Assembly (NCBI GenBank): GCA_958009085.1
Contig: OY253686.1
Location: 496,001-560,000, forward strand
Direction of reading: 5' to 3'
DNA: 64,000 nt
From: Protoeuglena noctilucae
Lineage: Eukaryota
The notes under the pieces are model-generated. The model ran no database searches, was not told the DNA's origin, and worked only from the letters and a program-made list of their open reading frames with translations. Shown piece after piece: positions 1 to 64,000 of the stretch; within the stretch, counting starts at the first letter, position 1; every line of letters starts with the position of its first letter. The position numbers and the translations under genes are program-made.

Positions 1-3000
1 CATGGCCGCCGAGCTGCTCACGATCGTCCAGTCGCCGCTGGTGGCGAAGATCGAGCACGTGTTCGTGGATGCGGTGCCGTTCCAGCATCTATTCGGGTAC
101 TTTGCGGCAGATAACCGCACGTGGCGGCCGGGGCTGTTGGAGCGACTGGTGCAGCAAACGGCAGAGGAGAGTGAAATGGAAGATGCGGCGAAGGGAGACG
201 CATCGTTCGGGGACGATGCGCGGCCCGTGCAGCGCGTGGTGGTGCTGGACTGTTCCGCGGAGTCTCTGGCATTAGAAGACGTCGCGCCATTGTTAGCACA
301 TGGCGTGGCGCACCTCCCCAACGGCGCTATGGTGCAGGCCGCGGGGCCGATCGCGTTCGCCTGTGAGACGGAGACGCTCGCAGGCCTGAGCCCGGCGCTC
401 CTCGCCTCCGTCCCTTGCGTCCCGCTCACTGTACCCGTACTCGACCCGACGATTGACAGCGTGCGAAAGGACCTCTCAGCACGGTCCACGTCCTTCTCAG
501 AGCACAATGAGAAACAGGGGGCCGAGTTCCTCCATTCCCTCGCCACCTGGGCCTTCCAAGAGCTCAAGTCGCTCTCTAGGGTGGGACCGATGCACGCAGT
601 GTTGGGGCGGGCGTGCCAAGTCATGCAATCCATCTACGAAGCGACCTACCAGCACGCGAGCGCGGCGAAGGCCGAGGCGCTGCCCGATTGGGCCATCGGC
701 ATCCCCAACTTCAGCCGGACAGATGCACTGAGTTGTTGCGCGTTGGTGTATGGTGCGGTGTGGGCGATCGGCGGCTGTCTCACCCCCGATGAGGGTCAGG
801 AGTTCGAGTCTCGCGTGCGCGACACGCTCCCAAGTAATTTCTGCCGCGTCCCGCCCCCCTCCACGTCCCTCTTTCACAGCATGGTGGATGGGGTGGCGCT
901 CGCACTCGTGCCCATCCCACCTCATGGGCCCGACACCTCGCCCGTGGTGAGAATGCATGGGTGGATGTGATCGCGAGTTAGTGCTATGTTAGTGTTTACT
1001 GATCGCGATCTGGCTGTTACTTGCAAGCTACTACCAGCTACTGCATGTATCACAAAGGACTAGCTGCTTAGTACAACGCTTTGGTACCTCGGGACCGCTC
1101 GCATGCTCGGCCCGGTCCCTCGTCACCTGTTTGCCCGCTCCAAATGTTGATTCGAACCCGCGACCTCTCTCCCGCAGGTCCTGACGCGCAAGGTGGCGGT
1201 GGAGCAGGCAGCGGCGGTGGGCGAGGCTCTGACTTACGACGATCGTGTGTTTGTCCACACGGCGATGACCATGGCAGTCGAGACGGCGGCGCTCATGGCG
1301 CTAAAGAGCTTTTTGCATGTGCCGCACATGTCTGCGGCGGGCACGGAGACGCGGGAGCACTTCGCGCCCATCGTGTTGGGGCCGCCCGCCGCGGGGAAGA
1401 GCGCCCTGGTGCGGGACATCGGTGAGGGAGCGCCACCCTCCCTTACCACCCCTCCCAACAGCAACAGCACCCATTCCCACCTCTCCCACCTCCCCTCTCC
1501 CCCCCCCAGTCCTCGTCACCGGCCACCAGCTCCTGGCCGTCCCCCTCACCTCCTTCGCATCGCCAGAGAACATGTCAGGCACTCTGACCTCCTCCATGCG
1601 CAACGACAGGGGTCACGTGCTGAGGCCCATCCTGCGGCCCAAGGCGGTCATCGTGCTGGACGACCTGCATTTGCCACTGCAGGTGAGAATTGCAATTACT
1701 GAAATGCTTATATTTGTATAGTGAATTATTCTGTGATCGTGCTTGACGACCTGCTTGCGCCCTTACAAACCCTCACCCCCACTGCCACCCTCACCGCCAC
1801 CCCCACTGCCACCCTTGCAACCACCCCCACTGCCACCCTTACAACCACCCCCACTGCCACCCTTACAACCACCCCCACTGCCACTGCCACCCTTACAACC
1901 ACCCCCACTGCCACCCTTACAACCACCCCCACTGCCACCCTTACAACCACCCCCACTGCCACCCTTACAACTACCCCCAGGCCTGCGAGGGCTGCTCGGC
2001 CCACGACCTCCGCACCGACCCCGCTGCCCGCTCGGCCATGCAAGCCTCGGAGATGGTTCGGATGATGCTGGACAAGATGGCGGTGGCAGACGCCACATCG
2101 GGGGAGGCGCTGACGCTGGCCAAAGTGATGATGGCGGGGACAGCGACGCGGTCGGGGCTCTTCTTTGGGTCGAGGGGGAGGGGGGCAAGGACGCTCAACC
2201 ACACCATGTGGTGAGGGGATGCGGGATGCGATGTGGTCACCTTGTTATCGTCTTATCTCATAAATTTTGCGATAAGTATCATAATAATGACTAATTAATT
2301 ACAACACTCACGTTGTACTTGTAATATTATTGCTATTATTGCTATTAGTGATGTAAATTTTGTTGTTATTGCTATTATTGCATTTTATTTATAATAATTA
2401 TAATAACAATAATGATTTCTTACCCCTCCCCTCCCTCCCTAGCCTCTCCCTTCGCGACTTGGAGTCGTGCCACGGCCCCCGGGCGATGCTGCAGGTGTTC
2501 ATCGAAGGGCCGGTGTTCCGGGGCATCGCGTCGCGCATCCTCACGCCCGTGTTCAAGGGACTGCTGCCGCCCACCATTCTATCGAAACTGGGTGAGATGA
2601 GCGAGGGGGTGCTATCGATATCGAATGCTGTGCTCATGACACGGCTGCTTTCCCCGCCCACCGTGACTGGCTTGCTCAATCTGAAGCTGGCTGTCCACAT
2701 ACTCGTCATGGTCAATTAGTCACCCTTTTATATAAGCACACTTCACTATAAATAACATATGTACTACTATGTATACTCGTACTAATACAATATACAATAA
2801 AACATCCATATTACCCCTCTGCCCGCAGTCGAGGCCCTGAAGTGCAGCTTCCGCGACGTCGCCGACTCGGTCCTCAACCCCGCCGCCAAGGTATTCGCCC
2901 CCGTGGTCAGCCTGCACCGAATGGTGGCATCTATTGAGGGAATGCGCGCCCATTTGGAGCTCGCATTCGATGCCGAGAGAGAGGCCGGCCACGCCCGCTC

Positions 3001-6000
3001 CCTCAACGCCATCTCCAAGCTCCGCATCAGTCATCTGTTCGTGCACGAGACGTGCTTGCAAGTGGGCGCGGCGTCTCCCAGCCGGGCCGTAGCACAGCAC
3101 GTTCGCAGCGCGGTGGTGCACGCCGCCTCGCACGTCGTGGCGTTCGAGAACCACACCATGCCCGTGCACCAGGTGAGTGGGGATGGTTGGGGTATAAATA
3201 TAGGGTTTTGATTGTAATTTTTTCGCATCACCCACTCACTGTAATCCACTTACCACCCCATCTACCACCTCATCTACCGCCACCACCCCCCACATACACG
3301 ACCAGTCACCAATCACCACCACCCCTCACCCCACCACCACCACCCCCCCCCCCCCCCCCCCCCCAACCCAGGACTCTGGCGGTTCCGAGGAGATCCTCCG
3401 CACATTGACAGCGGGCGGGGAGCTATCGCAAGGCATGTTGGTGGAAGCGGGGAACAAGTTCCGACAGCGCATGGAGCAGGTGCTATCCACATCCATGTCC
3501 GTGATCAAGGGATTCGTGGACAGCGCGACGCAGTTCAACTGGGCCCCGCTGTCGCTGGCGAGGCTGGCGTGGCCGGGCGCGCATCGGCAGGTGGCGCGAC
3601 TACTGTCGATTCAACGCCTGCCCTGGCCGAGGGGCCACGCCGTGCTGGACGGGCCGCTGGGGTCCGGACGGCACAGCTGCGTGCGGCTGGCGGCGGCTTA
3701 CGCGGGCGGGGTGGTGGTGGATGTGGCGGGGCAGCGCACGCGGCCGCTCACTGCCGAGGCGGTCCTGGCACGTGCAAAGGAGGCCGTGCTCACGTGTCTG
3801 ACAGATATGAAGCGCGTCGTGATGCTCATCGACGTGGATACCGTTCCCCACGAGAGCTTGCACCCTGTGCTGCACCTGATATCGAGCGACACACTGCAGC
3901 CGGGGTTCTTGCCTGACCTGCCCCCCGGCATCGCCTCGGGCCCGGCGGCGGAGATACTGAAGGATTTGGACGAAATGTCGGCGATGGCGGCGGTGGAGCA
4001 GCAGCGCAGGGCGGAGGGGGCGGGTGCGGGTGGCAACGACGGTGGGGTGGTGGGGTCGGGCAATGGGGGTGGTGCGGTGGGGCGGGGCAGCGCGAGCGGG
4101 AACGGCAACGCGGGCGGCCGCGACGCGCTGTCGACGCGGCCCAAGGGCGACCGGGCGAGCGCGGAGGCCGAGCGGCGGATGATGGAGCAACGCGACGCGA
4201 TGAGAGCCGAGATGCGACAGACGCCTCTCATGCTCGCGCGACTGTCGCGGGCGGTGGGCAAGGCGGTGCGGGAGCACCTGCGCGTGGTGTTTCTGGTGGG
4301 GAGGGACCGGGCGCCGCGTCTGCTGTCGCAAGCGCCGGTTCTGGCGTCCCACTGCGTGGTGCAGGCGATCGAGGCCGACCAGGACTCGTATTTGGAAGAA
4401 GCGGTGGGGAACGTGGTGAGTTTGTGTAGGTGATGCGGTGTTATATTTTTACACACATATTATTTTACAGTATGTATGTTGATTTATAATTATTGCAATA
4501 ATATTAAATTACAATAAACTTGGCATTTATTGTTTATTATTTATATATTTGTTTTATTACTGTATTTCACTTATATATCATATCTTTTCCATTCCCTATC
4601 CCCCGCAGGTGGAGCAGTCTGGCTTGATGGAGGAGGATGTGGGCCTGATGGCTCTGGCCAAGGTGCAGGGCATGCAGAGCGAGGTGGAAGCCATCGAAGA
4701 GCAGTTTGCATCTCTCGTGAAATCGTCGGAACCCAAGAGCGTGTACCAGGCGGCAGCAGACATGCACCTCACGGCGGGGCGCTTTTTCGACGACCACGGC
4801 CCAAGGCTCCAGCTGTGGCCGCGGCTGTCAGCCTCCCACCTCATGGACCTCGTCGGTGAGCGGTTGGTATGAGGTGTTCTAATAATGGTTATATGTCACT
4901 GTAATAGCAACTGTAATTGACAGGCCCCGTGACCATGATATAGAGTTACCACCCCACCACCACCACCATTCCACTCCATTACCTTCCCTCACCACCACCA
5001 CCTCACCTCACTCTCACCAACCCCCCATCCCCATCCCTGCCCTCACCACCACCAACACCACCACCCTCACCAACCCCTCACCCTCACCACCACCCCTTAT
5101 CCCCACCCCCCCAACCCACCCCCCCAGGCGCCTACGTCCGCATCCTGAGCTCCGAGCTCCGCTTCATGAAGGAGCAATACGCCATGCGCACCCTCTCCCG
5201 ATCGGAGGCCGCCGCGATGCGACTGAACCTGACCATGGCGCAGCGCATGAGCGCCGAATTGGAGCCGAAGCTGGAGGCGGCGGCGGGGGAGGTGGCGTCG
5301 ACGACGGCGCAGCTGGCGGACGTGCGGCGGCGGCGGGAGCGGCTGATGACGCAGAGCGAGGCGCTGAGGGCAAAGAAAGAGGACGTCAACGACGTGCTCG
5401 ACGGGCAGCTGCAGAAGATCGAAGACGAAGTGCGCAACCGGTACCAGGCGAGGGGTCAATTGGCGATGAATGACACTGTTCAATCGAAATGAGTAACACT
5501 GTTCGAGTAAGATGTTGATCGAGGACAAAGTGCGCAACCGGTACCAGGCGAGGGGTGGTAGTTACCGCTATGTGCATGGCCATCGGTAGCCAACCCCTTC
5601 ACTACATACCATTACCAATGGTAATACCATCTGAAACGAACAATACTTATAACATCATAAACGATCAAAACCCGCACCTCCCCAGGCGTTCATGGTGTAT
5701 TCGGAGAAGCTGGCGGGCATCAGTGATACGGAGATGAAGGAGCTCAAGGCGTACTCCAATCCGCCACGGATGGTGCGGATGGTCATGCAGGCGTGGTGAG
5801 TGCGGTGGGTTTGATGGGGGTCGTGTGGTGAGTGCAAGCCATTATGCAAACCCGCACCTCTCGTCCCCATTGCCCATGACTTTGCCGCTACCCAGCAACA
5901 CGCTTCGATGCGCCTGCGACGAGCCCTTTCGAACTGTCGCTGCGACAAAGCACAATTTTTGTTATCTCACAGGTGCGTCCTCCACCAGATGCTGCCCAAC

Positions 6001-9000
6001 TGGGAGCTGGCCCGCGCCTCGCTGATCCGCAAAGCGGTGCGGCAGGCAGCGCCCACGTTCGACGTCGCGGCCGTGACGCCGCAGATGGTCCGGGACCTGC
6101 AGGTGAGGCGGAAACGGATAATTTGTGCGAATATTGCCGCGTTGGGAGCGTCCGGAAGGTGCAGGCGGGAATGCGGAGGGAGAGTTGGGTGGCGTGACAG
6201 TGGCGATGAAAACGAGCGTGGAGGACGTATGGGGCCTCGTTGGGAGCTCGTGCAGCTTGTGGATAACAACAAGACCGCATTAAACGCTTGTAGCGCATTA
6301 CTATTCGACTTTGTGTCTCATAACGCTTTCTTTCATCTTTAACATCTCACCAAGCAACCTCACCATCTCCGATGCGCATTTCTAATCAAGTTCCGCTTAT
6401 TAATAAGCCATCGTTTTCCCGCAGACGTACGTGACGGAGCCCGAGTTCCGCCCCGAGGCCGTGGCGCAGGTATCGCGGACCATCCGCGCCGTGGCCGAGT
6501 GGGTGCTGAGCGTGCACGACCTCGCCATCGCCATGTTCCAGGTCAGTTATGAGAAGGCTTGTCGTGATGCTAGTAGATGCGTGCGTTCATAGAATAGACA
6601 GAGTGGGTGCTGAGAGCGTGCCTTATGACCTGGCCATCCCCCACGTGTTTCAGGCGAGACTTGGGACGTCGATTGCCATGATCACTGTCCCTAAGATTAT
6701 TGTCAGAACTATTATCATTCATCATTGTTACCACCGCCCATCCCCCTCCCCCCGCCCCCAGGTCAAGATCTCGAGCGGCGAGCTGCAGCACAAGACGGGC
6801 TCCCTGGAGCACATCTCCGCGGTGATGCAGGCCAAGGAGGACGCCTTGGACGCTCTCGATCTGGAAGAGGTTTCTTGCAACCGCATTCTGGCGAACGCGC
6901 ACCGCACGCTGGAGGAGCTGTCGGCGAAACGGGAGCTCCTGGCGCGGTCGATCGAGCGGACGGAGAAGCTCATGAAGGCACTGGAGGCGCAGGTGAGGGG
7001 TGCTATTGTTAGTTTGATGATGAATTGAGTAGCTCATGAAGGCACTGGAGGCGCAGGTGAGGGGCGTTGTGTGATGCTTCGCGATATGTGCATACATACT
7101 CACAGTGGAGGCGCTTAAGTGACCCCATGCACTGCTCCACTCACCTCACCCCCACCCATCATGTCACTCACCCCGCTCACCCCACCCCACCCCTCACCCC
7201 CCCCCTCACCCCACTAACCAACCCCCACCTACCCCCACCCCCACTCCACCTCTCACCACCCCACCCCACCCATCACCCCCAACCTCAGGCCGCCTCGAGC
7301 GAGGACTGGCACCTGGCTTCTGACGAGCGACTGATGTGCCTGGAAGGAGACTGCCTGATGGCGGCCGCCTGCGTCACCTACCTCGGCCCTCTCCCCGCAT
7401 CGCTGAGGGATGACCTGACACGCCAGTGGAGTGCCAGTCTGACCGACCTGGCCGTGCGGCACAACCCGGACTTTACTCTTCACGATATGGTGCACGCCAC
7501 GATGTTCCGGGAGAACATTATGCCATCCACGATTCTCTTGGAGGGGTTGGAGAAGGACAATCTCGCCATGGTGTCGCTGGTGAGGTTTGTGGTGATTAGT
7601 ACTAGTAGTACTACGGGTGGCGATACTACAGCAAAAGCTTGATGGTAACTAGGTCACCACTATTATAATCGGTAGTGCAGTGATGGCCATGGGCAGTGCA
7701 ACGCTCTTAAGCCTTGTCTATGTAGCATCACATTCACTCAATGTAAGCGCTCAACTCACCTACCATCCCTCTCCCCCCACCCCCTTTCCACAGACCCACT
7801 CCATCCCCCTGCTGGTCGATCCGAGCAACCAGGCCTTAGCTGCCTTCCAAGCACTGCGCAAGGGCGTTTATTGGTATCGATTCACCTCCGCCACACCAAA
7901 CTTGGCACACGAGCTATTCAAGGTATTGCACGATGGCGGGTGCGCGCTCTTGCAGCTCCACGGCGACCCCGGGGAGCCCTCGAGGCTGCAGCCGGTGATA
8001 TCGGCGCTGCGTGCCCATTCACGTACGGCAAGCATCGTGTCGCGGTACCCCCGGCCACTCGTCGCCTACACCAACAGCCTCTGCCCCACGCTGTCGGAGG
8101 TGAGGGAAGGGAAGGGTGGGTCGGGGAGTTGGGGTGATGAATATGAAATAGAAATATATGCATGATATATGCCGATTATTGCCAAATGATGCATTAATAC
8201 GTATGTCTAAATTTGTTTGTTATGTACATATTATTGATACTAGTAATATATAATCCCAAACCTCCCGCAGACGGTGTCCGAGGCCTTCTGCGTGATCAAC
8301 TGCCTCCCCGACCAGGGCGACCTGCGCAACCGCATGCTGTCGGAAATCATGAAGCTCAAGGACCCCACGCAGGAGGCCAGGTGTGTTGGTGTGGGGAATG
8401 CTAACAATATTACTAGCAGTATTTTTGCTTTCAACAATTTTTAAAAAAATAATTTGATAATAATAAAAATAGATATCAGTTTGTAGGGTGAGTTCCCGCA
8501 CATACATCCTCCCTTACACCCCTCTTGTTACACCTTTCTTTCAGGCACCGTGAGGTGACGGCGTTGATGGACCAGAACCGCCGCACCGAAATGGACGACA
8601 GCGTTCGGCTAATGACGCTGCTCCTGCAGCACCGGTCCAAAGTGTGGCGGAGCGAGGCGGCGATGGGGGAGGTGCTGGAGGTGTGCGACCGGTTATTGGT
8701 GACGAGAGACCAGATGCAGGTGTTCCAGAGCGAGCTGCTGCGGCTGAGGGAGTTCGACAAGCGGTGAGGGACACTGTTATGAGAAAGCGTTGGCTATCAC
8801 GCTTCGTCACTTGATGGGCTCAGTTTCTATGCACTCACATTCCATTCTATCCAATTATCCATTCATCTTTCCATTTCCATCACTCCATTTCATCCCCAGC
8901 GACGAGGACCTCGCCTCCGTTGCCGCCGCCATGCACTGCCCACCACCCAGTCGCTCTCCAATAGCATATAAATTGACGATCAATTCACTTATCCAATCAT

Positions 9001-12000
9001 CTTATCCCGCTCGCCCTCTCAGCGACGAGGACCTGGCCTCCGTGGCCGCCGCCGTCTACTGTTCCGGCGCCGTGCTCTGGCGCCGCGTGCCGTCACTATT
9101 CATCGACCTCCCCGCATTCGTGGAACTATTCCGGGAAGCCAACTCCGCGCGCGCGGGGACGAGGGGAAAGGGCGCGAGGTCCTACAGCCCATCGCCGGGC
9201 AGGACGGTGCAGATGCTGTACCGGTGAGGGCGTGGTAGTACTGTTACTGTTGTCGTCATGGGTCTTTATTATCAACAAGATTGTAACAATCTCCCCTTCC
9301 CCTTTACCCCTCTCAGCGCCCTTGCCCCCAACGCCAGCAACGAGCAGGCCAACCTGCTTGCCCTCGCGTTGTCAGCCGGCCTGAGCGTGGCGAGGGGAGA
9401 AGCAACAGTCGCAGAATTGGAGTTTTTCCGGGCGTGGCTGGACGCCGCGTTTCAGAAATCGACGCAGGGGGCGATGGTGCAGGGGAGCGCGACGGACCTG
9501 GCAGCGGCGGCGAAGAGGCTCGGGGCCTGGATGGCCAAGTACCCCGTGCAGGCGCCCATGGTGAGAGCGGTTATTGGTAGTATTATTACTATTGTTATTA
9601 TTACTGTTATAGATATATGGTAGTAGCAATAGTAATGAGTGAGGGGTAGGGGAAGGCGAAGTACCCCGTGCAGGCGCCCATGGTGAGAACAGTTATTACT
9701 ATCACTATTACTTTGACTATAACTATGACCATTTCTATCACTATCACTATCACTATTACTGTTACTGTTACTGTTACTATTACTATTACTATTACTATTA
9801 CTATTACTATTACTATTACTATTACTATTACTATTACTATTACTGTTACTCGCAGATGGGCATCGGCGGCCGCGTGGCGTCCAATCTGGCGGCATGGGAG
9901 GCGGCCCTGGCCAGCAAATCCCCGGGGGACGCACTGCCAAGGCCCTACGACACGCAGCTCACGCCGTTCCAGAAGGCGAGGAGTGGCGCTGTGCGGATAT
10001 CATTTATAATTATTTAATCCTATTAATGCATTAAAAATAACTAATATATACCCTTTCTGACGGCCGCTTGCGCCCGTTGCTCGATAATTACAAATTATAT
10101 GATAATAACAATAATGTGATATTATAACTGTTCGCAGGCGGTGGTGCTAGTGATCTTGGAGCCCGAGATTCTCCCCACGGTGGCGCGGTGGTTCGCGTGG
10201 AAGCTCTTCCGCCCCACGCCCCCCAGCAGCGCCATCGAGAAGATCGTGGTGAGTGTTTGGGATGTGAGGATAGTTGTTATAACGATTGTGGTAATTTTAT
10301 GGATTATTTTCAATCATATGCAGCGGCAGTGATAAGCATGTTAATATCAACGCACCTCTCTTCTCCCCTCCCCACTGCTCCCTCTCCCCTCTATTCCCGC
10401 AGAACGTGGCCATGGCCATGCCCACGACTGTCCCCATGATGATGTACCTCAGCAACGAAATCGGAGCCGTGCCGGTGCTGGGGGCCGCCAACGCCGCATT
10501 CGAGCACAGGTGAGGGGATGCGCGATGTGTCATTGTAGTCATGCATGCTGTTGTCATGCATGCTATTTTTTTTTAGTATTCCTTATTACTACATCAAGCA
10601 ATCGTGCTAGGAAACCTCCCTCAATTCGACCCAAACTCAACCATATCCTTTCTCTTCTACAATTTTAGTATATTCCCACTCCTCCGTATCCCCAGGATCG
10701 CCCGGGAGGCCGCGACCGGCCAGCCCAGCCGCGGCAGCCTGGCCCGCACCCCCGCCACCCCCGCCGCCCCCCCCACCGCCGCCCCCGCGCCCGGCAAGCG
10801 CCTCAAGACGCCCGGGAAGGGAATCCTAGTCCGCTGCGCTGGCGAGGGCACGAGCCTGTCGATGCAAGCGACGGTGCACGAGGCGCGCAAGAGCGGGAGC
10901 TGGGTGGTGGTGCTGAATGCGGGCCACGAGCCCGACATGATGCTGACGCTGCTGGCGGCGCTGGAGAGGGACCATTCGGGGTATACCCATCCCAACTTCC
11001 GCCTCATCATATGCCTGAGTCAGCAATCGGATTGCGACCTGACATGGGCGCTCACGTCACAGGTGTGAGGGGGGTATGAGAGGGGGTTGAGATGATATGG
11101 GGATGATTTGGGGATGGGCTGAGTGTGAGGGTAGTGGGCTGTTATCATTTGACTCATCTCACCACATCTGTGGTAACAATTGCTCGTGATTGCAGGCCTG
11201 CGTACACGGTGTACGTGGAGCATTACTTGCGTTGCATCCATTAAGTTATAAATATTTAATACTCTCTACTTTGCAATCGTCGCAGGCGTACACGGTGTAC
11301 GTGGAGCTCCTCCGCAGCCCCAACAAGGACCTTTCCACGCTGCTGCACGTCTGGGAGTACATGGCGCCCAAGGTGTTCATGTGAGTGGCAGTCATTGGCA
11401 AAGACATAATTGATTTGTCAGTTGCGATGATGACGGTGTGACGGTTAGTTGGGATGGTGACAGTTGCACTGCCATCTGCCCTTATTGCCACCCCCACTGC
11501 CACCCATAACACCACCCCCACTGCCACCCCCACTGCCACCCTCAACAACACCCCCACTGCCACCCCACCTACCCCCCAACACAGGGCCACCCTGAGCATG
11601 ACTCAGAAAGCGGTTAAGCGCGCCTTCCTGAGCGTCGTGGCAGCGCATGCGTCGATATCGTGGGAACAGACGTCGTCTCACTTCAGCGCGGTTCTGGCGC
11701 CCAATGCGTCCCGGGCGTGGGTGCCCACGCTCTGGGACATGCACCGGGCCATCGCGGCCATGCAGACCATCAAGGCGAGTGTGGGAGTGGATAGTATAGT
11801 GTATATGAACGAATGACCAATGCTTTGTCCATACGATCAAGAGACTCTTTTCCGACGCCCGCATGGGCAACTTTGTGCAGTATCATAATTCACACATTAT
11901 GATAAGACAAGATAGTAACAAACAATCCCTATCCTCGTCTCCGACACCCGCAGACCTCCGCCCTCTTCTCCGACGCTCGCATGGGCGACTTTGTGCAGTG

Positions 12001-15000
12001 GTGCGGCTACGGCGCCCTGCCCCGCACCTTCATGTCCGAGCACGCCATCACCAGAACATTCGAATTCTCCCATCTCGACGATTCGAAAGCGCCGAGGACG
12101 TTCATCGCCAAGGCCATCGCGCAGGCGAGGGGGGATGGGGGGGGGGGTGTTACGCGACGTGGGATCGGGAAATAATGATTGTAGAATGGCAATGTCATGG
12201 TTACCAATAAACAACGTCTAACAATAATTAAACCCAGACAGGATACTAAAACTTGACCACAACGCCACGTCACCATCTTCAAATCCCATTATCAAGTCCC
12301 CTTAACCCCTCCCCCCATCTCCAGGCCAAGTTCCACCGCCCCCCGGAGGCCCCCTCGGACCCCTCGGTCCCGGAATCGAAAGCGACTACATTGGCGGTGA
12401 TGGTCAACGTGATCAACGAAGTGTTGCCGGAATCACTCACGTGGCCCATGGCGCTGGGGTCGGCCCACACGCCGCACCACATCGGGGACTTTGCGAGCGC
12501 GAGGGCGGTGGCGGACGCGCTCGCGTTGATGGTGGACGGGACGATGGCGGTCGACGCGGGTGAGTGGGAGTTATGGATAACTGATATAACTGATATCAGT
12601 TATATGTGGTATTGGTGGTTGGGACCACGGCTGTCCCAGAATGGCCCCCACCCCTCGTTCACATATGCCATTCATATTCATACCAATATGTACATAATTA
12701 CTCTTCCCCCCCACCCCGCAGCATGGCTTGCCGAGAACGGCCCGAACCCCCCCCCGCCACGTCGCCACCGTCGCCCCCCCCATATTGCGCGCCATCCACA
12801 AGGACAGCCCCGTCACACGCGCTCGACGTCATCGCCAGGATACAGGGGTACCTGCAGGCGCTGCAGACTGCGTCGGGTGAGCAGACGGTTTATTGATATC
12901 ATTGATAGTTAAGGTACGATTACATATTTATAGTATTGATAATTTATCATTATTACAATTGAATTACTATTACTACCATTACTACCATTACTGCTGTGCT
13001 ATATTTCACACTCCTTACCCCACCCCCCACATCCCCCCAGACGCCCTGCATGACGTGGGCGACGCCCTGACAGAGGACGCCGACGACCCCTTGCAAGTGA
13101 TCGTGGGGCCGGGACTGACCGTGGAGCATCTGGTGGTCTTGGAGGCGAACATGCTCGCAGCCGTGATCGATCCGGCAGTGCAGGACATGACCATGGTGCA
13201 CGGGGCACTGGCCGCGGGGTCCGAATGCGCGTCGCCCGTTGCAGGCGAGAGAGGGTTGGGGGGGTGTGCAGATGTGTGCGATCGTGCTTTGATAGTTATG
13301 TTCGTGCTTTGGTAGTTATACTCGATACATTTGCTCTGCGCTCTGCCCATTCACAGCCCATTCACTCATACCCCACCACCACCCTCCTCACCAACCCCCA
13401 CCCCAACCCCCCCCAACCCCCACAGCCCTGCTTGTGACCGACCGCCTCACCTGGCCCCTCCCCAACGCCTGCATCGTCACCAGCACATCCGACTGGGTGG
13501 AGGAGGTCTGCCGACGCGCGTTGTACATCAAACGACTGTCCGATCGTGCTATCCCAGGCTCAGCTGTCCCATCGTGGCGCCCCAGCCGCCCCGAGCCCAC
13601 CACCATCGCCGTCATTGACATATCCGCGCTGTGTCGCCCCGAGGCACTTTCCCTCGACATGTATGTCTATCTAAAGGAAGACATCGAGAGCGTGCCCGCG
13701 ATTGGTGCCGACGAGATGCTGCTCAAGTGTATTGTCACCGATTGCGACTATGAGGACGAGGTGGTCGATCCGAGGCCGGACGGAGTGTACCTGACGGGGG
13801 CGTATATGCTGGGGGGGATATGGGACGCGAGTGACGCCACTATGCTGCCCCACCCGACGGGCTCCACGTTGCCCCGCGTGTTTGTGCCGCTCGAGAAGGA
13901 GGTGAGAGATGGAGAGTGGGGTTAATTTTGATTTAATAGTAATAGTAATTGATAGTAGTAGGGATTGATTGGATGCTCCCGCTCGTGTTCGTGCCGCTGG
14001 CGAAGGAGGTGAGGGAGTGGGGATGATATGGTCATGAATTGATAGTGATTCGGACTGAATGGATGCTGTTGCTCGCCTCTCATCCGGTATCTGAGAAGCA
14101 AAGTGTCACCAGCACTCACTGATATTCCCATCCATATCTATATCCATACCCATATTCATATCCATGTTCTCCTCTCATCTCCTCTCATCTCCCTTGCAGT
14201 CCGAGAAGCGCCTGGTGACCGGCAAGGACCTTCACCGCCGCGCCGCCCCCGCCCCCCGCGTGCGCGACCGCCGCGCCACCGCGAGCCTCGCCATCGCACG
14301 CGCCAGCGTCATGGGATTGGGTAACGACGACGATGATGATAATGACGATAACGCGCGCGAGAGCGGGGGGTCGGATCTGGGGCCGGAGGCGGCAGTGGCG
14401 GACGACACGCCGTGGGCCCGGTTCAGTGGGGGTGGGGAGGCGAAGGGTGGTGCTGCGGGGGCGGCGGCGGCGTCCCCACGGCGCAGGGCGAAGCGGGATC
14501 CGGTTCCCTCGGAATTTTGGGCCCCTGTGGCGGCGGCGGGGGAGGGTGGGGGGCCGGGGAGCGCGATCGGGGGTGCGAGTGCGGTGGGGGCGCGGAGCAG
14601 GGCGGGAGACGGGGCGCGGGGCAACGCGGCGGCGTTTGAGGGGCGGGACTGGTCTTTCTTGGCGAGGATACCGGTCCACGCGGCGCCGGCGCTCAAGACG
14701 CCGCATCTGAGGTGAGGGAGTGATGGTGGTTCTGGGAGTGGTTGTGAGGGATGAGCGGCGTTGTTGGGGTGGTTACAGCGGGTGGCAATGAGGTGATGAA
14801 GTGGTGGGGGTGCACAAGGCAGCCAGTCTTGTCACACGGATCAACCCCCCATCACCTCATCACCTCGTCATCCCACCCCCCACCCATCGCAGGGGCACCA
14901 CGGTGCTCTACATCCAGTGCCAGACCAAGCCCTGGCTCGACACCATCCTCGGCACAGCCGCGGCCGTCCTCGCACCCCCACCACCCGCCCCCGCCCCGAC

Positions 15001-15686
15001 CGGCCCGGACGCTCAGGGTGGGGCTGCTGGTAACATTGGTAACGCTAACGACGACGATAACGACGGCGACGGCTCGCTGTACCTGCGCCCGCGCGCGCCC
15101 ATGATTGCGCAGGCGTCGCCCCGCACCTACCGCGTCGCTGCGATACCCGGGGGTGGGGGTGGCAGTGACCGTGGGTATAGTGATGGGCCCGGGGTGTCGA
15201 TTGCGCAGTCGACGAGTGTGGGGTACCCCAAGCGAGCAACTGCGGGGGAGGATGACCCGGTCGCCGCGCCACGCATTCAGCGCACTTTGACTGCGCTGGA
15301 GGGAAGGGCGGGTGCGGGGGGGGGTGCGGGGGCGTCGAGGGTGCGGGAGCGGGTGCAGAGCGTGGTGGGGGATGGGGGGGCGCCGGCGCGGGTGCGGCAG
15401 GCGCGGAGGCCCAGCGAGATGCTTGCGGCGGAGGTGAGGGGTAGGATGGTGTGGGTGGAAGAGTTGCGAATGCGAGTGAGATGCGTGTGTTGGGATGGCG
15501 GAGGGGGCGAGGGCGGTTGCACTGTCTGTGCTTGGGAGAGCAGCTTATCGAATGCAATTGTGCTTAATCTACTCGTTTCATGCATCTCCGCAGATGACGC
15601 GGTCGCCGAGCCGCAATGGCAGGAACAGGAGGGCCGGCGCTCTGCCATTCGGCATCACAAACGTGCTGACGGAGGAGTACGGGTAG
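1..15686 (+). CDS. Dynein heavy chain-like protein, highly divergent, about 30 exons, 5' end outside the window (AAA2 to C-terminus)
   Basis: Dynein motifs occur in the expected order across spliced exons: AAA2-like LFGYF..W..GLL and FACETETLAGLSPA (2-450); AAA3 P-loop IVLGPPAAGKS (~1370-1402) with Walker B VIVLDDLHLP (1647-1676); AAA4 HAVLDGPLGSGRHSCVRLAA (~3635-3695); stalk coiled coil (5128-5447); microtubule-binding domain EMKELKAYSNPP and EPEFRPEAVAQVSR..AEWV; LEGDCLMAAACVTYLGP after the stalk; AAA5 PLLVDPSNQA; LTPFQK; AAA6 GSWVVVLNA and HPNFRLII; C-terminal PDGVYLTGAYMLGGIWD. The last exon 15594-15686 ends in TAG. Confidence 0.88.
1771..1979 (+). repeat. Intronic minisatellite, ~24-nt unit ACCACCCCCACTGCCACCCTTACA, about 8 copies
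   Basis: Tandem units are directly visible. The array fills the 3' part of a dynein intron up to the CAG acceptor at 1978-1980. Confidence 0.9.
9692..9850 (+). repeat. (ATTACT)n / (GTTACT)n microsatellite in a dynein intron
   Basis: Directly visible hexamer array. It produces the spurious ITITIT/NSNSNS ORFs. Confidence 0.95.
11487..11580 (+). repeat. Copy of the CCCCCACTGCCACCC minisatellite family in a dynein intron
   Basis: Same core unit as 1771-1979, again just before an acceptor (11583-11585). Confidence 0.85.
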
Positions 15687-19877: not shown

Positions 19878-20239
19878 AGGCAGCGAGGGCGTTTGCGAGT
19901 GCGGGGGTGGGAGCGATGGGATGGTCATGGGGGTCGCGTGGTAGTGAGCTGTTGCGCCATGGTGTAGTCAGAGAGAGAAAGAGACTAATCCAGATGCGGA
20001 TGCAGTGTGTGAATGCGTCTGAGACTACTCGCAGAGGCGGTGTGTGAGATGCTGGTCATGTGTTGATAGCAAAGCTGTCGCTATTCAATCTTTATGTCTT
20101 GAAACTGCGCTAGGCACAACGGCGCCGCCGCTCTTGCGCGCAGCACCTACCATGCCACACCCAGCTTCCCATACACAGCAGCGAGTGGGTTTGCAACCCA
20201 AATCCAAATCCCTCCGATTGCTCGTCTAACAACCCCAAT

Positions 20240-32200: not shown

Positions 32201-34013
32201 AGGGATGGATGTGTAGGGTGGTCACTCAGCGCTCTCACAAACATGCCGATGGTCGTGTCCCACTCGCACCGCCACATGCTAAGCAACCAGAAACACCCTC
32301 CTCAACCATGTCGATATCTCATTCTCCATATCTCATTCTCCTCTCCTCGCAGGGCCACGTGGACCTCGACACCGTGGCCGTGTGGTGGAGTGGCGCGTAC
32401 GGCGTCCACATCAAGAACCCCACCCCCACCAATACCAGCCCAGGCCCATGCACTCTGACCCCTCACTCCTTCGTGCGCAATCGCAAGGGCGATGTCATGA
32501 CTGGCAATCTCGTGGTGAACTTCCCCGTTCCCGGCCCTGGCCTGCCCGAGGCTTCGGGGGCGGCGGCACGGGGGGCGCGGGGCGATGAGGCGGTGGAGTG
32601 GGCGTCACAACAAGAGCTGCTGGGTCACCTGCTGCAAGTCACGAGTGAGTGGGATGGGATGCGCTGTTATGTTGCATGGTCACTTGGTGCAAGTCACGAG
32701 TCAGTGGGATGGGCTGTTCTGCTGCTCGGTCCATGGACAATCACAATCCCAACCAACAACACTCCATAACAAGTACTGACAACAACCAACAATAGCTATC
32801 AATCATCTCCCCGTCTCTCTCTCTCATCGCAGGCGACTTCATGGCGTACTCCCCGTCCCCCACGCCCCTGCGCACCCCCCCCGCATCTCTACCGGGGTCA
32901 TCCCCACTCTCGGCACCCGCCCCAACCCACGCGAGCCTCCCCGCGCACGCGAGCCTGCCGGACGCATCTGCAACATCCCGCCACCGCTACAGCCGCCACA
33001 ACAACAACACCGCCACCCATCGCACCCACCACATGCGCCACGCCGATGCGACGGTGGGGTGGGACGCGGTTGCTGCTGCACCCGCCAGGTCGAGCTTCGA
33101 TTCCCTCCCGCTTCCTTTATCGATTCACGAGCCGAACAGGCACGCTGCGGACGGCATGTGGGCGGATGGCGCGCCTATGTCTGCTCTGTCCGAGGCCCTG
33201 CAGCGTCAACACCTGGGATCGAATCTAAACGCCGGTCCTGGCAACGAGAGATCCCATGAGCCGATGCGTGGGAACTTGCAGCAGGGCGTGGCGCGGAGCT
33301 GGAGTGGCGCGGGTGGGCCAGCGTTGCGGTACCAGGGAGGCGAGCAGGGCTTTACCCTATTGGGAGGTGCGCAGGGTGGGACGTGGGAGGGGGTTTTGCG
33401 AGGAGGGGTGGGTGCGGTGGGGGCGGCGGGGCAGAGGCGGGGGTTGGGTGGCGGGGATGAAAGTGGGGTGGCAGCGGGGGTTGGGGCGGGTGGATGGGGC
33501 GATGAGGGGCGAGGGGTGCCGCCCTCCGTGGAGCGGTGGCACGTGGCGAGCTTGCTGCAGGTGACAATGCGCGACACGATGGTTGCTATGACTGATAGAG
33601 ATGTGCGCCTGACAGACCTGACTGCTTGAGTGCTTTGTTAATTGCAGGCGGCGACCGGGCGCGGAGGCGAGGCGGACTTTGCCGCGGGAATGGCGCGGTG
33701 GCTGCGGGGGCGAGCGGGGCATGAGGCGCACGGGCCGAGGGCGAACGGCAACGCGAGGGCGGGTGCTTTGGCGATCGAGGGGCAAGACGTGCGGCAAGCG
33801 CTGCACCTGTCGGACCGACCGGACCTGTCCGGGGTGGCTCTAGTGCCGTGGAGCGCTGGGGGAGGTGCGGGTGCAATGGGTGCGAGTGCGGTGGGCGCGG
33901 GTGCGATGGGTAGTACAATGGAGGGTGGGAGGGATGCGGTTGCCAGGCAGCTGCTGGCGGCGGCATTGGAGGCCCTAGCACCGCCCGGACCGCCTGCTGA
34001 CCGGGAGATTTGA
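29248..34013 (+). CDS. F-box protein with LRR-like repeats and a right-handed parallel beta-helix domain, about 9 exons
   Basis: Spliced N-terminus MKQEVERTIHDIPYDVLG|SCVFRHLPLADKLLAVPLVCK|AWRDVL is an F-box. LRR-like LGSLSQLRRLTV and LSALTALTALTVS follow. Beta-helix-type repeats lie at 31530-32137 (HGVTV..G, GNAVGLLVHG, NAACGIAV, NGVGLRV). Confidence 0.72.
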
Positions 34014-43086: not shown

Positions 43087-43104
43087 AGCAAGACGCTGTG
43101 GGGA

Positions 43105-48541: not shown

Positions 48542-50844
48542 CTAGTTCTTGCCGGCGACGCTGTTGACGGTCTCGGGTACCGGGATGCGCTGTTGGAACT
48601 TCTCCTTCTCCTCCTCGCTCCACGTGCTGGCCCTCACGTGGTCCCACTCCTCGCCGTCCATGGTAATCGACCTCTTGAAACCGTACGCCAGCTCGCCCTG
48701 TGTATATGGCGCAGGCATGCACGGGTTGGGTGTGAGCTAGCCAGAGAAAGCCAGGGGCTTGCGCATCGATGCGCTGAAAGTTTAACCCAGTGCCTCGACT
48801 GCAGCGAGAGCCACGTGGCGGCTGGCACGCACACTGCATGCATGCCCAGCCAGCCCCTTACCTGCAGCTGGGCTGCGATGACGGCCGACCGGATGCGTGG
48901 CATCCTCTTCGCCTCGTAATCTGCCATGGCCTCTTCCGTGACCCCGTGCGCCGCCACCGACTGCGCCAGCTGCCACGCGTCCTCGAACGCCAGCGTCAGG
49001 CCGATCCCTGCGCATTGTGTGGCAGATTGGGGTGAGACGCGCCACAGGGGCTAAGAAGATGAGCCACTTCATCGATCACTTTTAGCATTAACACCGGCCA
49101 GGTGCCTCCCTGGCGCGCCCACTGCCACACCACATGCCCGTCTCCCACACGCCCGCTGCCCCCCCCAGGCCTCGACCGTTAGCCTGGACGCGTGCGCTAC
49201 CTCACACACCCATCACCCCATCATACACACCCAATGCCTCTGCAGCAACCATTCACCGCCCCGGTCTCACCCGTGTGCCTGGACACGTGCGCTGCCTCGT
49301 TCACCCACTGCTACCTCACATAGCACATAAACACCCACATCTCCATCACGCACATCTCACCCGTGGGCCTGGACGAGTGCGCCGCGTCGCCCAGCAGCGC
49401 CACGCGCCCCTTCACGAACCGCAGCTGTCCCTCTGCCGCCGCCTGGTGCACGCTAAACAGCCCATGTTCGAGAATCTTGCCCCTCTCCGTCGCCTCAATC
49501 GCCTCCTCTAGATCCTCCAGGCCCTGCCCCGATACCAGCGCGAGCACGCGCGCCAGCACGCCCTCGTGAGACTCGTCGGCGTCGCGCCATGCGGGGTCGC
49601 CTGCGGCGCGGAGGGCCGGAGGGGCGCGAAGGCCGCGCTTCTCCCTGTGAGGGGGGGGGGGGGGGGGGGGGTCAGAGAGGGGGTCATCTATCTGCGATTG
49701 TGCGATTGTAGCAGGCGGGTGGGTGTGTTGATGGCGAGGGTGTCAGGCCAGTCACCCCGCCCACCGCCACGGTGGGGTACAACAGCAGCCAGCACACAGG
49801 CTCTGCGCTAACCCTCACATGGTGGAGTGCTTGATGGAGATGGTCCAGCACGTTTCGCTGTCTGAAACGGGGTACAGGAGGCACACCATGTCGTTGATGG
49901 TGGTGGGCGGGCGCAGAGCACGACTGCGAAGAGCGCCCCCCTCGGCGCCCAGCTCGGGAGGCACCATCGCCCGGTACATGATGACGTCCTGGAACTCCGG
50001 GACGCGGGATTCCGGCATCAGCGTCCGACGGACGGAGCTGAAGTAGCCGTCCGCGCCGACCACCGCCTTCGCTCTGCGGAGCGCGAGTGGGTGGGTGGGT
50101 GGGGGTGGAGTGCTGATGCACAGGGAGAGTGTGTGCTGCAGTGTAGCAGTGTAGCGCTGCAGCGTAGTGTAGTGTTTTGTGGCCTGGTACAGCACAGGCC
50201 CTCCCCAGCCCTGCGTGTCATGTCAATGTATTAAGCCAACGCGACTGTCACTCGATCAATCAACTGGCCCCAGGACAGCAGCTAGAGCTGTGTCGCTTCA
50301 CCTGATCTCCTCCCCTGCGCCCGTGACGATGCGGAAGGGCTCCTCTCCCTCTCCGGCTGAGATGTCCGCCACCTCCGCCCCAAACGTAACCACATCTTCC
50401 AGACCCTCGGCAAGGTAGCTGCGCACGCGGTGCCAGGGGTGCAGGAGGAGCGGGCCGGACATGGGGCTGCGATAGGCGGTGTCTCGGATGCGCTGGGCGA
50501 TGGCCGGCTGGATGGCGTCCAATGCACGCATTGCCTCGGGGTGCAGCGCCACGCCCGCGCCCACGCGCTCCAGGCCCGGTAACTTCTCCAACACCTGCGT
50601 GCGATCGAATAAGAGACAGGTCAGGGATTGATTGTGCGACCGATCGACGGCAAGCGCCATGCAGTTCAAGTTTTGCTGCGTCAGGGCGAGCGATCTGAGA
50701 TCTTCCGCGGCTCCGGAGCTCTGCGAGCCTGCTTACCCGAACGGTCGGCGGCCGGGACGTCTTAGGAACCTTCACGCGGCGAAGGGCCTGCGCCAGCGCC
50801 AGCCCCCCGGGACCACCGCCCACGATCGCCACGTCCACCGACAT
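48542..50844 (-). CDS. FAD-dependent monooxygenase (salicylate hydroxylase/zeaxanthin epoxidase-like family), multi-exon
   Basis: DVAIVGGGPGGLALA, VVGADGYFSSVRR, GRVALLGDAAH, G..LAFEDAWQLA, YEAKRMPR. The start may lie further upstream. Confidence 0.9.
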
Positions 50845-59059: not shown

Positions 59060-59590
59060 CGCTGACTAATCGCAAGTGGCAACCAAGTACAACTTGATGA
59101 CGCATGATCGACATGATATGAATTGGCATACATGGCATGGCTTGGCATGGCACGTCGCGGCCAGCATTGGCGATGCGACTTTGCAGGCTCGCGGCTCGCG
59201 GCGATCTTTTCCTCGGTTCCCTGGCGGCCTCTTTTGAAACCGTCCCAGTTGAGTCGAGGCTGTGTCCGCGCATGGCAGAGGGCGCAGAGGGCGCAGTGCG
59301 AAGGGATGGCGCGCAGCGCAGGCTAGCTGTCCGCACACTGTTCAAGGCTCTGCAAGGCTGCGGCTACCTCTCAAGGGAGTTCTATACAGCAAAGCAAAGG
59401 CTGCAGCTGCCAGGCTATGAATTCGCTCAAACCCCAGGGCAGTGTCGGCAAAAGCAGTGAAACACCAGTACAGCAGTGAGACAGCACGGGAGCATTGGCT
59501 CACTCCTCCTCATCCCCCCAGCCGGTGGTACCACGAAGCAGTGACACATCAAGCCACGGCTGCCCCCCATCTCTCCATCACCCCCCCCCC

Positions 59591-62500
59591 CTAACCCAGC
59601 CGGTGGTAGATGTCACAAACGCCCGTTCCCACCGGCGCCACCCTGCCCAGCACCAGAGCAGAGGATGGGGTGCGGAGGTCGTCCACCGCTCCCTTGAGCG
59701 TCGCATCGGTGAGGAACTGGGAGGCCGTCTCGAAAGACATCTGTGCAGTGGGGAGTGGGGGTGGGGGGTTGTTATATCTTGTTGTTGTATATGTAACTGC
59801 AGGTGATGGAGTGGCACTGGTGAGGAACTGCGAGGCTGTAATCGAGGGACATCTGCACGTGGGCGATGGGTAGATGCAGGGGGTTGTTGAGTGCAATGTA
59901 TGCGGGTGTGGGTTTGGTGTACTGATGTGCTCTGCTCTGCCCGTGCCCCCCTGTCACGACCATATCTAGACCATACCAACTACACTATCGCTTCGCAGCA
60001 CGTCACACACTGCATCTCATATCCCCACCCCCTTTCTTGCCTTGAGGAACGGGCACGGCGATGAGTCGATGCCGATGCGGTTCATGGGTCGATAGGACCC
60101 CAGGAAGGTCATGTAGTCGGCAATGAGCGAGAGGTGGCGGGGGTCGACCGCGATGCCGTACGCGGCAAAGACGGACTGGGGGGGTTGGGATGGGGGGGAT
60201 GGGGTGTTGAGTGTGTTTGTCAATTAAAAAGCGGTGTTGAATGTGTGTAATGGGGAGCGAGAGAAGGGCAGTGAGGGATGGTACGCGGCGAAGAGGGGCT
60301 GGTGCAGTGAAGGAAATCGTGAAAGTCGCCCAGTGCTATTTACTAATTTCAATTAACCACGCCATATAGTTCAACTCGCCTTGACCTCGTGGACGATGGT
60401 GGCCCTTGCGGCCTCGACCCCGTAGTAGCGCAGCATGGTGCCCACGTCATTGGTTCGAATCTTGCTGAGGGAGGAGAGGGGAAGGGGACACGGTCAAACA
60501 TGTTGGGTCCATTCCGCTTTCTGCTCTTAGTCACTCAGCCCACTGCTAGGCAACCACTGGGTCATTCGCAGCCATTCAGCTCATCACTCCTCCTACCACA
60601 GCTCATCCTACTGATCATTGCTAGCAAGCAATCCATCACTCACTTGACGTCCACCACGCCATCTCAGCCAGTCCCAGACTCACTAACAAGCACTACTAAC
60701 AACAGCACTATTACACTAAGCAACTACTCACTTGACGTCCACCACGTCATCCGCCCCCAACGCCGCCTCGACGTTGATGCCGTCCGTCTGCACCCTTGCC
60801 GGACCCTCCCCACCCGCCCCCTCCCCCAGCACAAAAACCTTGTCGATACCGGGTGTAATGCGGACGGGGGTGGCCACGGCCGCTTGCTGTGCCAACTCCA
60901 AGATGAGGAGCTTGGGGCTGTCGAGAGGGAGGGTGACTGCGGTTGGCAGTGGGGGTGGTGTTAAGGGTGGCAGTGGGGGTGGTAGTAAGGGTTGGCGTAG
61001 GGGGTGGCAGTGGGGGTGGCAGTGAGAGCGAGGGGGTAGCTACCATGCTCAACAAGCTATCATTATTATCCCATCCCATCATCTCCACCCCCACCCACCA
61101 CTCACTCGACACCTCGCACCGCCACGCCTTTCCGTCCGCCCTCCCCGTCACCGCACCCCCATCCCCACCCCCGCCCCTCCCCCGCCTGTCCCCCCCTCTC
61201 CCCGACCCCTCCCCCTTAACAATCCCCATTCTCCTCTTCTCAATTGCGTCATTACCACCGCCCTCGTCCCCCGATGCCCCACTCCCGCTCTCCCCATCGC
61301 TGTCACTGCCATCGCGCTTTGCAGTGGTTGCATTCCCCTCCCCCATTCGACGCTGCGCCCTCTCCGCCCGCCTCGCGATCGCCTTATCCTCATCGTCCAT
61401 CTCCTCGTATGTCTGAGGAAGGGGTTGTGTTTTGGTAATATTGGTTGATAATATATAGTATTATCATTACTACTACTGTCAATGATTATCACCCATATAA
61501 CAAATCTATCAAACTTAAGCACGATTAGTTACCAATACATCGCAGTGCAGCGTCCCGACACCCAAAACTCTCACCTCCCATATCGCAGCCACCAACACCC
61601 TCGACCCAACCCAAGCATTAACAACACCCATGCAACTACAATCAAAAGAACAGAATCACCAACCACCCCCCCCAACCACCCCCCACTCTCTCCCCACAGA
61701 CCACACCCCTCACCTTCATCTCCCTCCCGTCCCCATGCCACCGCCTCCGCCCATCCCCCTCCTCCTCCCCCCCCTCATCCTCATCGTCATCGTCCTTATC
61801 CTTCTTCTTCCCCATTTTCATATCCATTCCCTTATCCTTATCTTTGCCCTCCCCACCCATCTCCCCCTCCCCATCACCACCATCCCCCTCCCCGTCACCC
61901 CCATCGCCATCGCCACCCCCTTTTACATCGAACCGACCCATCGCCTCCTTCCCCCCCGTCTTTCTCTTAATCTCCGCCTTTATCGCCGATTTCAAACGGG
62001 GGAGGAAGCGGGATTCGAACGCAGACTCGATCTCGTGCCACGCCAGAGACGCTTCGGCGGGGTAGGCATCCGATGGGTAAAAGTCCAAGCAGACGCGGTA
62101 CAGGCTGCGATTGAGGGGGAGGGAGGTGGATAATGATAAATGTTGCAATATTACAACAATAATTACAATGTTACAGTAGTAATAACGTTAGTTTTTATAA
62201 AAATATAAATATTATCAAAATAACAATAATATTGCAATTTAATTATTATTACAGATTCTCTTAAAAAACCCCCCCATTTATCAGCCCCCAACACATCTCT
62301 CACCGGCTCCTCAGTCCCCCCGCGTCGTTTCTGGCGTCGGCCGCCGGAAACTCCTCCACCCGCATCCCCGCCAGCACCTCGGCCAGCCTCAGCTTGCGCA
62401 GCTGCGTTGCCAGCGCCGTCGCCTCCGTTATTCCCATGTTATGTCTCACGGGGAGTGTCATGACGGGGGTCTTGCATGTCATGGCCGCTGTCATGAGGAT

Positions 62501-64000
62501 CTCGCGCAATCGGGGGATGCCCAGCGTCACGTTGGCCTCGCCACGGCCGGCCATGTGGAAACTGGGAAGGGAAAAAGAATAAGGGTTGTTGTTAAAGCGC
62601 TAGTTGGTGTTCGTGCTGTTTGTTGTGAGAGGTGCCTGGAGGGTGGGGGGCGTTGTTTGCGTAACTGGCTGTCCCCAACGACTGCCCGGCAATCACCATC
62701 AATGCATCGTCGATACAACTTGTCAATTATCACTATCACATATCATATATCACCCCTCACTCACGTGTTGAGAGTCATCTGCGTGGACGGCTCCCCCAGC
62801 GACTGCCCGGCAATGACGCCCACGGCCTCTCCTGGGTCTGCCATCCCCGTCAGGTACTTCAAATCCATGAGATGGGAGAAGGAGGAAGGGGCTGGGGGGG
62901 AAGGGTGGGGTGAGGGGTTGAGGGTGGGTGGGGGTGGCAGTGGGGGGGGTAGCTACACAACACAAGCAAACATCACCAGCCAGCAAATCAACCAACCACA
63001 ACACCAATTCCATCCCCATTCCCAATCCCAATACTCACTCATGACCCCCCCATCAACCCCCCCGCCCCTCGCCCCCTTCCCCTCCGATGCCTGCTTGAAA
63101 CGCCCCCCCTCCTTTGTCAGAAACTCGGCCACCGCGTCCCCGTAGCTTTCTGGCACGCATCCCAGCGCCGTGGGCGGATACTGGCACTGCACTGGCAGGG
63201 CCCGGTCGACTGACTCGGGGCCGTTTCTGGCGAGGGCCTTCTGGCGGCGGCGGCGGGCGTGGGAGACCTGGGAAGGGGGGGATATGATGGGGGATAAGTG
63301 AGTTAGGGAGAGTGGGTGCAGGTAATTTAAAAGATAGGGGAGTGAGAGGGGGGTGATTGGGTGGAGACAATGCATGGACAGCCAAGCACCATTCGCACCC
63401 CTCTCCACACTATTAACAATCAACATGTTTTGGATAAACACGTTGACATTCACTCACACTCTCACACCCATCTCTCTCACCTGCCCCTCAACGACCCCCC
63501 CCTCCCCCCCCACCCTCCCCGCCCCCAGCTGCTGCGCCACTCTGGCGGCGTTGTCTGCCAGAAAGTCGAATCGCCTCGCGTAGGAAGCGCGCATGACATC
63601 CGATCCGTCCTCGCCATACACGAATTGCACGATGGAGCCATCGGAGGCGTCGCGGACTGAGTTAGGGGGGGTGGGGAATCGTAATTTAATAAGGTATAAG
63701 GGTTGGTGGTTGCTTGATAGTTATGGCTAATGGAGCTATCGGATGCGTCGCGGACTGAAGGGGGCGGAGTAGAAGGTGGGTGAGGGTGGTGGTGGTGGTG
63801 AGGGTGGGTGTGGATGGCCGTGAGCGCCTCCAGGTTCTTAATCAGTCACAATCGCTGCATATCATGCATTGCATATCTATAATATACCATAATCTATTAA
63901 ACACCTATAACATCTATAACTAATAACTCACCCGTCGCGTCGTAGGCCACCGTGAGCGCCTCGAGGTTCTTGATCAGGCACCGCTGCAGGTACCCCGACC
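59591..64000 (-). CDS. RPA1: RNA polymerase I largest subunit, 3' part (5' part beyond the window), multi-exon
   Basis: [62 protein letters not shown] (Pol I-type), [46 protein letters not shown]. Confidence 0.96.
60944..61025 (-). repeat. CCCCCACTGCCACCC minisatellite family copy in an RPA1 intron
   Basis: GGCAGTGGGGGT units. On the transcribed strand they are C-rich and lie near the acceptor, as in dynein. Confidence 0.8.

Follow-up and report, generated by a model that had tools for sequence, protein, structure and literature searches.

Intronic duplicates of exon ends in the alga Protoeuglena noctilucae differ from their exons in the manner of two coding sequences

Duplications that span a splice junction are already known (PMC4974935, PMC3443670). 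In the RdRp gene of potato, a tandem duplication across the intron-exon boundary is described as a single cis event that creates a new intron (PMC4974935). The short intronic copies of exon ends reported here, which we call echoes, resemble the potato duplication, as it is described (PMC4974935), in being direct duplicates over a splice junction that leave a once-exonic segment in the intron, and differ from it in adding no intron, in recurring in 98 introns of our sample, and in that the two copies differ like two coding sequences. Intron-linked direct repeats have been tied to break repair as well; these are likewise direct repeats but flank or define a new intron, unlike echoes, which measure 16-63 bases and lie inside an existing intron that they lengthen. 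No duplicate was found to define a new intron, and in the one RNA-covered case the echo sits inside a single intron that is spliced across. Tandemly duplicated, mutually exclusive exons are intronic copies of whole exons with both splice sites, and their differences are mainly silent; echoes are similar in their mainly silent differences and unlike in being exon ends with at most one splice site, and the combination of acceptor, donor and frame was not found kept in them. One-sided invasion or integration in plant double-strand-break repair was reportedly described by Puchta in 1998. In such repair one end engages in homologous copying and the other in end joining, as described for plants (PMC4762383). 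It would yield the tandem product that we propose for echoes; the plant system as described involves engineered donors in somatic cells (PMC4762383), whereas echoes would be natural scars with a diverged homologue as the putative donor. Literal term matching over open-licence PubMed Central and bioRxiv texts, a corpus without subscription journals and supplements, turned up no account of exon-end copies in introns that diverge from the exon in a coding-type manner. Junction-spanning duplication is hence the known part, coding-type divergence between the copies appears to be the new one, and a divergent donor is its best candidate cause, if an unproven one.

Echoes in the window and in the genome sample

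The window is a stretch of 64,000 nucleotides from contig OY253686.1 (positions 496,001 to 560,000; assembly GCA_958009085.1), and its host genes and echoes are compiled in Table 1. Seven of these echoes had been picked out in a sequence-only reading, which also listed codon pairs and judged silent differences to be at least as numerous as replacement differences. All seven are present, each pairing with an adjacent exon end 86-132 bases off, every listed codon pair was found in the sequence, and the tally holds: in the exon frame, 55.7 silent sites carry 21 differences and 171.3 replacement sites carry 12 (ratio 5.4). The copy read at 1733-1768 stands for its 1733-1754 part; its PLQ tail (1760-1768) is doubtful, since this 9-mer, with six more occurrences in the adjoining minisatellite, is a unit of that minisatellite, and its 4 silent changes may therefore be chance. 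A 12-base C/A-rich minisatellite occurs in introns genome-wide on either strand, in the window at 1769-1975, 11478-11570 and 60933-61041 and on many other contigs.

Table 1. Host genes and echoes in the window, with positions counted from its first letter
Feature	Position	Strand	Remarks
Host gene 1, dynein heavy chain-like gene (3' part)	1..15686	+	~32 introns, 8 echoes
Echo of exon segment 1647-1668, in intron 1683-1980	1733..1754	+	extension to 1768 overlaps minisatellite unit
Echo of exon end 5417-5447 including GC donor	5517..5547	+	
Echo of exon end 6963-6992 and donor	7027..7056	+	
Echo of exon start 9023-9061 and acceptor	8900..8938	+	
Echo of exon end 9529-9560 and donor	9651..9682	+	intron flank still alignable in part
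Echo equal to exon start 11286-11307	11200..11221	+	no differences
Echo of exon segment 11963-11999	11845..11881	+	junction not included
Echo of exon end 13877-13901 and donor	13984..14008	+	RNA contigs splice 13902-14199 over echo
Echo of exon end 32623-32644	32678..32699	+	
Echo of exon end 49361-49389	49271..49299	-	second echo ~49170-49204
Host gene 2, RNA polymerase I largest subunit (3' part)	59342..64000	-	single copy
Echo of exon start 59702-59740	59814..59852	-	one indel; outside pooled set
Echo of exon end 60732-60751 and donor	60644..60663	-	
Echo of exon segment 62794-62817	62673..62696	-	junction not included
Echo of exon start 63632-63656 and acceptor, in intron 63657-63931	63730..63754	-	
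Echo of exon segment 63950-63988, in intron 63657-63931	63818..63859	-	

Host gene 1 matches Pfam AAA_8, AAA_9 and Dynein_heavy, all below the curated cut-offs, and at least 7 RNA joints lie in 12121-15592; the best named matches of an RNA polymerase I exon are chlorophyte green algae at 55-65% identity. Intron 63657-63931 on the reverse strand carries echoes of both flanking exons, and at 6601-6641 there is a weak, gapped echo of exon 6497-6532 that the filters removed. Within 12560-13244, both RNA runs use an acceptor at 12721, with which the frames of the 12325 and 13041 exons do not match, and the gene finder preserves the frame through an acceptor at 12807. The obvious donor at 2711 within 2443-2828 likewise breaks the frame; the gene finder picks 2592, and no RNA joint is found there among those listed. 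Two further genes were noticed, an intronless histone deacetylase-family gene at 51738-52901 (-), with a best match of 61% and the next at 40-48%, mostly to unnamed metagenome proteins and uninformative as to taxon, and a long, almost intronless gene at 54386-57268 (+), with internal repeats of RCC1-like appearance.

The genome comprises 26.3 Mb in 27 contigs, and echoes were collected in a sample of 1.05 Mb, composed of 864 kb and a held-out 190 kb whose choice rested on an intronic minisatellite, regardless of its echoes. Our gene finder, self-trained from a seed of window exons, predicted 1460 introns in the 864 kb, and the reading frames used throughout are its own, RNA-checked at few junctions only. 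Since it takes echoes for micro-exons, as happened with two in the window, where it also misses the acceptor at 59741, exons shorter than 45 bases were merged into introns, and gene finders should generally be expected to make this mistake. Each of 1310 introns in 210 genes was aligned with as many as 150 bases of either flanking exon, giving 78 exon-end matches with a score of at least 30, where 1.4 were expected from the exon ends of other genes. Thirteen were removed (low complexity, more than 30 bases from the junction, intron <110 or >=1200 bases, more than two blocks, duplicates), leaving 65 pairs in 23 genes. The held-out sample yielded 57 matches in 289 introns against 3.5 expected, of which 16 fell to the same filters, leaving 41 pairs in 19 genes; the pooled set amounts to 106 echo/exon pairs. 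The window contributes 14 of the pipeline's pairs (18 silent and 15 replacement differences, ratio 3.6), the 59814 pair not being among them because the gene model missed its acceptor. Echoes are direct and short-range, with 78 direct versus 4 inverted matches in the first sample; inverted or hairpin templating was rejected on these 4 reverse matches and the 3 of the held-out sample.

Over the 106 pairs, an echo lies 44-297 bases from its source (median 95.5), and the spacing is random modulo 3 (37/37/32). The junction is reached in 71 echoes, while 35 stop short of it. For 18 of the 106 pairs the same exon end has a second echo, so that the event recurs at single junctions. Echoes are concentrated in long genes with long introns, occurring in 78 of 417 introns of 200-1200 bases versus 2 of 346 at 110-150, and three 100-kb samples with short introns held none. 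Compared within the same genes, echo-bearing introns are longer (244 vs 183.5 bases); the median spacer is 67 bases, and the remainder of the intron beyond the echo measures 173 bases vs 185 in echo-free introns (p 0.49). Splice sites copied into echoes are mostly kept, with GT or GC in 43 of 44 donors and 20 of 27 acceptors intact. The GC donor is itself common in this genome, as 269 of the 1460 predicted introns are GC-AG (in the window for example at 5448, 9976, 11775, 12125 and 13245). Introns of echo-bearing genes are also skewed in composition, being G-rich in their first third (G 0.37, C 0.18) and C-rich in their last (C 0.41, G 0.16), and the skew is weaker in other genes.

Silent excess and the spectrum of differences

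The per-site ratio of silent to replacement differences (pS/pN) between echo and exon is 4.43 in the first set, 3.59 in the held-out set (gene bootstrap 2.3-6.1) and 4.08 in the pooled set (133 silent, 104 replacement; gene bootstrap 3.2-5.2). Under the same detection, simulated fossil copies gave 1.24-1.99 over 24 settings, and ten further fossil simulations gave 1.79-2.05 with a C↔G ratio of 1.6-2.4, compared with 5.3-25 observed over the same five scorings; simulation of a divergent homologue reproduces both levels, which the fossil simulations fail to do. The sequence-only reading had argued that a simple fossil predicts a pooled ratio of about 2 or less, and the observed value exceeds this, its lower bootstrap bound of 3.2 lying above every fossil simulation. 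Chance matches, 494 in number, show a ratio of 0.83, and reading the echoes in the two wrong frames gives 0.69 and 0.70. The size of the excess varies with method, from 2.57-4.91 in filtered to 1.72-3.83 in unfiltered sets; fixed ungapped windows give 2.93, 2.58 and 1.95, falling as the windows overrun the echo, and for pairs that lack the junction the ratio is 2.96, its excess over 2 not being clear at fourfold sites (p 0.09). The silent excess is a real, replicated signal that the plain fossil model does not explain.

The firmest and most stable sign is the C↔G contrast, which persists after control for context. In the pooled set, C↔G differences occupy 46 of 421 fourfold G/C sites vs 6 of 903 zerofold sites, and at third positions after T they occupy 25 of 165 where the change is silent vs 0 of 81 where it is a replacement. 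Stratification on trinucleotide, by which sequence-context mutation bias was removed as an explanation, leaves a C↔G rate ratio of 4.4 (p ~1e-6 against 2). Among differences between intron-only repeats (26 pairs), C↔G accounts for 12 of 97, confirming it as a minor neutral change. A directional shift of codon preference in the exon was rejected too, since there is little direction: the commoner codon is on the exon in 15 of 31 C↔G differences and in 52 of 85 overall (p 0.05).

Replacement differences have the appearance of neutral decay. They are not more conservative than chance would make them (BLOSUM p 0.29), they introduce stops at 2 vs 2.9 expected, and they are transition-rich and CpG-enriched (11/153 vs 10/382). 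Replacement differences are unevenly spread over the pairs (dispersion 1.34, p 0.012), silent ones are not (0.76), and the two show no correlation, a soft result in that detection trims the upper tail. The silent layer, about 0.14 per fourfold site, requires protein selection in both copies or a far faster exon.

Intron flanks, three-copy cases and the search for a donor

Identity between the two copies declines as soon as the splice motif is passed, with 0.67 over +6 to +8 (background 0.42) and 0.43 over +9 to +15 (background 0.33). Flank scores have a median of 0.18 vs 0.13 in other introns (p 1e-8), where a young cis duplicate would score 0.63-0.72; they fit a change of about 20% per copy, against 5% at the zerofold sites of echoes, and just 2 of 70 flanks reach the score expected for 10%. 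The flanks of the two copies are homologous, yet much more diverged than the echo. Junction duplicates identical at birth would show a pS/pN of at most about 2 and flanks that age with the echo, and neither was observed; the few pairs that retain well-aligned flanks are plainly young duplicates. Echo and exon read like a comparison of two orthologous gene copies, in which replacement sites are conserved, silent sites moderately diverged, the splice motif conserved and the intron barely alignable.

Three copies could be compared in 17 cases, after removal of one of low complexity. Echo-private changes comprise 13 silent over 92 sites and 15 replacement over 281, and by copy the private silent/replacement counts are 6/2 in the exon, 5/4 in the near echo and 8/11 in the far echo. 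Three silent sites show three states, and some triplets are nested; in one of them, two echoes agree with each other and differ from the exon at 3 silent sites. These cases suggest several coding versions, although the counts, including those of the near echo, are too few against an excess arising in the exon only.

Contigs of marine metagenome X5 (2016, from another study) were compared with positions 1-16000 of the window, and match 1-1802, 4043-6996, 7239-9691, 10740-11537 and 12747-16000 with 0 other letters and 0 gaps; the 11845 echo lies outside these pieces. They run through six echo/exon pairs, so those echoes are not assembly errors. Over the same pieces the wild contigs hold no variant outside simple repeats, so that no divergent allele is visible today, and a near-clonal wild population is suggested. 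Runs X16-X23, sharing the species label, contain next to none of the sampled words, which does not prove the sequence absent from them, and may be diverged strains of use as outgroups. One metagenome scan for a close relative gave 17 loci at 55-68% over most of the query and higher only over short segments; with no close relative found, changes are unpolarised. A present-day paralogue as donor was rejected, as the tested dynein and polymerase exons are single-copy bar one 34% match. DNA searches for a donor yielded intronic repeats, none of the 40 candidates scored in each being an exon match, and the stretch 63790-63990 matches itself only. An RNA or cDNA template was rejected on the intronic bases beyond the junction that echoes contain. 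Fusion and recombination genes are present, as the genome has loci for HAP2/GCS1, two SPO11/TOP6A-like proteins and two long RAD51/DMC1-like proteins, the latter class combining DMC1 and RAD51.

Origin and meaning of the echoes

An echo and its exon end are probably two long-separated coding versions of one gene, joined in tandem by imperfect recombination, and the other version would come from a divergent allele, from a sister lineage or from a homeologue that has since disappeared. Observed are the tandem geometry, the coding-type differences, the neutral-decay layer, the flank divergence and, where RNA covers it, splicing over the echo. As for the event itself, a hybrid cell would carry two diverged homologues, a break would fall 16-60 bases from an exon end, and one broken end would invade the other version, copying through the junction and about 40-170 bases of its dissimilar intron. 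End joining would then link the copied end to the remaining broken end, with an exon tail both too short and too mismatched for annealing, and the stranded tail would be buried in the intron, spliced out and left to decay. The same product would result from unequal crossing-over, or if a small donor circle integrated, and given a divergent donor we put the chance of one-sided invasion at about half. Such repair would account for the scarcity of echoes above 50 bases, for the survival of junction-spanning products only, and for the growth of the introns; the echoes that stop short of the junction would need later loss. The short spacer and normal-length remainder are as one-sided invasion predicts, and any junction duplication predicts likewise. 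Several results weigh against a divergent donor: none turned up in the searches above, the tested exons are single-copy, the matched wild contigs hold no variant outside simple repeats, and the size of the ratio varies with method.

The same pairwise ratio and C↔G pattern would be expected if, after a cis duplication, the exon had outrun its echo, either because the echo was near-frozen by constraint at the nucleotide level or because the exon was repeatedly overwritten by clean gene conversion from divergent homologues while the echo stayed as it was. The nested triplets, the private changes of the exon and the retention of GT or GC in nearly all echo donors agree with it, and still we hold it unlikely: echo-private changes are silent-rich as well, conversion would leave the flanks as young cis copies, which nearly all of the 70 are not, and should give a gradient toward the junction, of which there is no clear sign, while for a frozen echo no function accounts for matching an old and not the present exon, and stops enter echoes at the neutral rate. 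Quite improbable is a simple fossil, that is, a neutral cis tandem duplicate beside a constrained exon with an excess due to alignment choices or unmodelled mutation bias. Permissive unfiltered alignment (1.72-2.58), the 4-30 fixed window (1.95) and the few plainly young duplicates speak for it, but the permissive sets include chance matches, the simulations stay short of the observed ratios, and the context-matched third positions count against it.

Of the two readings that the sequence-only reading had offered for a larger excess, a divergent allele or haplotype fits the data, and we infer it from the pattern, no relative being close enough for polarising changes; the other, in which the echo is or was translated in the same gene through alternative splice sites, fared badly. 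Mostly intact splice sites and thin RNA coverage leave this junction switching some room, yet splicing at the echo junction would preserve the frame and avoid stops in just 5 of 45 cases, the spacing is random modulo 3, and the second splice site is missing (CAG stands close to where the echo begins in 7 of 45, and a donor follows the echo in 0 of 20). Replacement changes, moreover, are not conservative, and both RNA runs splice over the 13984 echo, the sole RNA-covered one with a joint among those listed, so that we regard it as highly improbable. Least credible of all is a tandem merger of two haplotypes or strains in assembly, which would give divergent exon ends with unalignable introns and is largely refuted for the six pairs through which the X5 contigs run.

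The alga may, with chances a little below even, have recombined repeatedly with lineages so far diverged that pairing is confined to exons, each imperfect event depositing a fragment of the other lineage in an intron. On this view its introns would hold, by rough extrapolation from 65 in the first 864 kb to 26 Mb, of the order of a thousand pieces or more of vanished 'ghost' alleles, all datable and readable from one genome, and echo formation would be a main driver of intron growth in the alga's long genes. Sex and hybridisation are seldom seen in marine picoalgae; should echoes derive from diverged homologues, one assembly would preserve a record of past outcrossing. The divergence of the partner would be legible in the extra silent differences (about 0.14 per fourfold site), and the relative age of each event in its decay at replacement sites. 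Echoes would also provide a concrete route to intron growth, and a natural genome-wide read-out of recombination where exons pair and introns do not.
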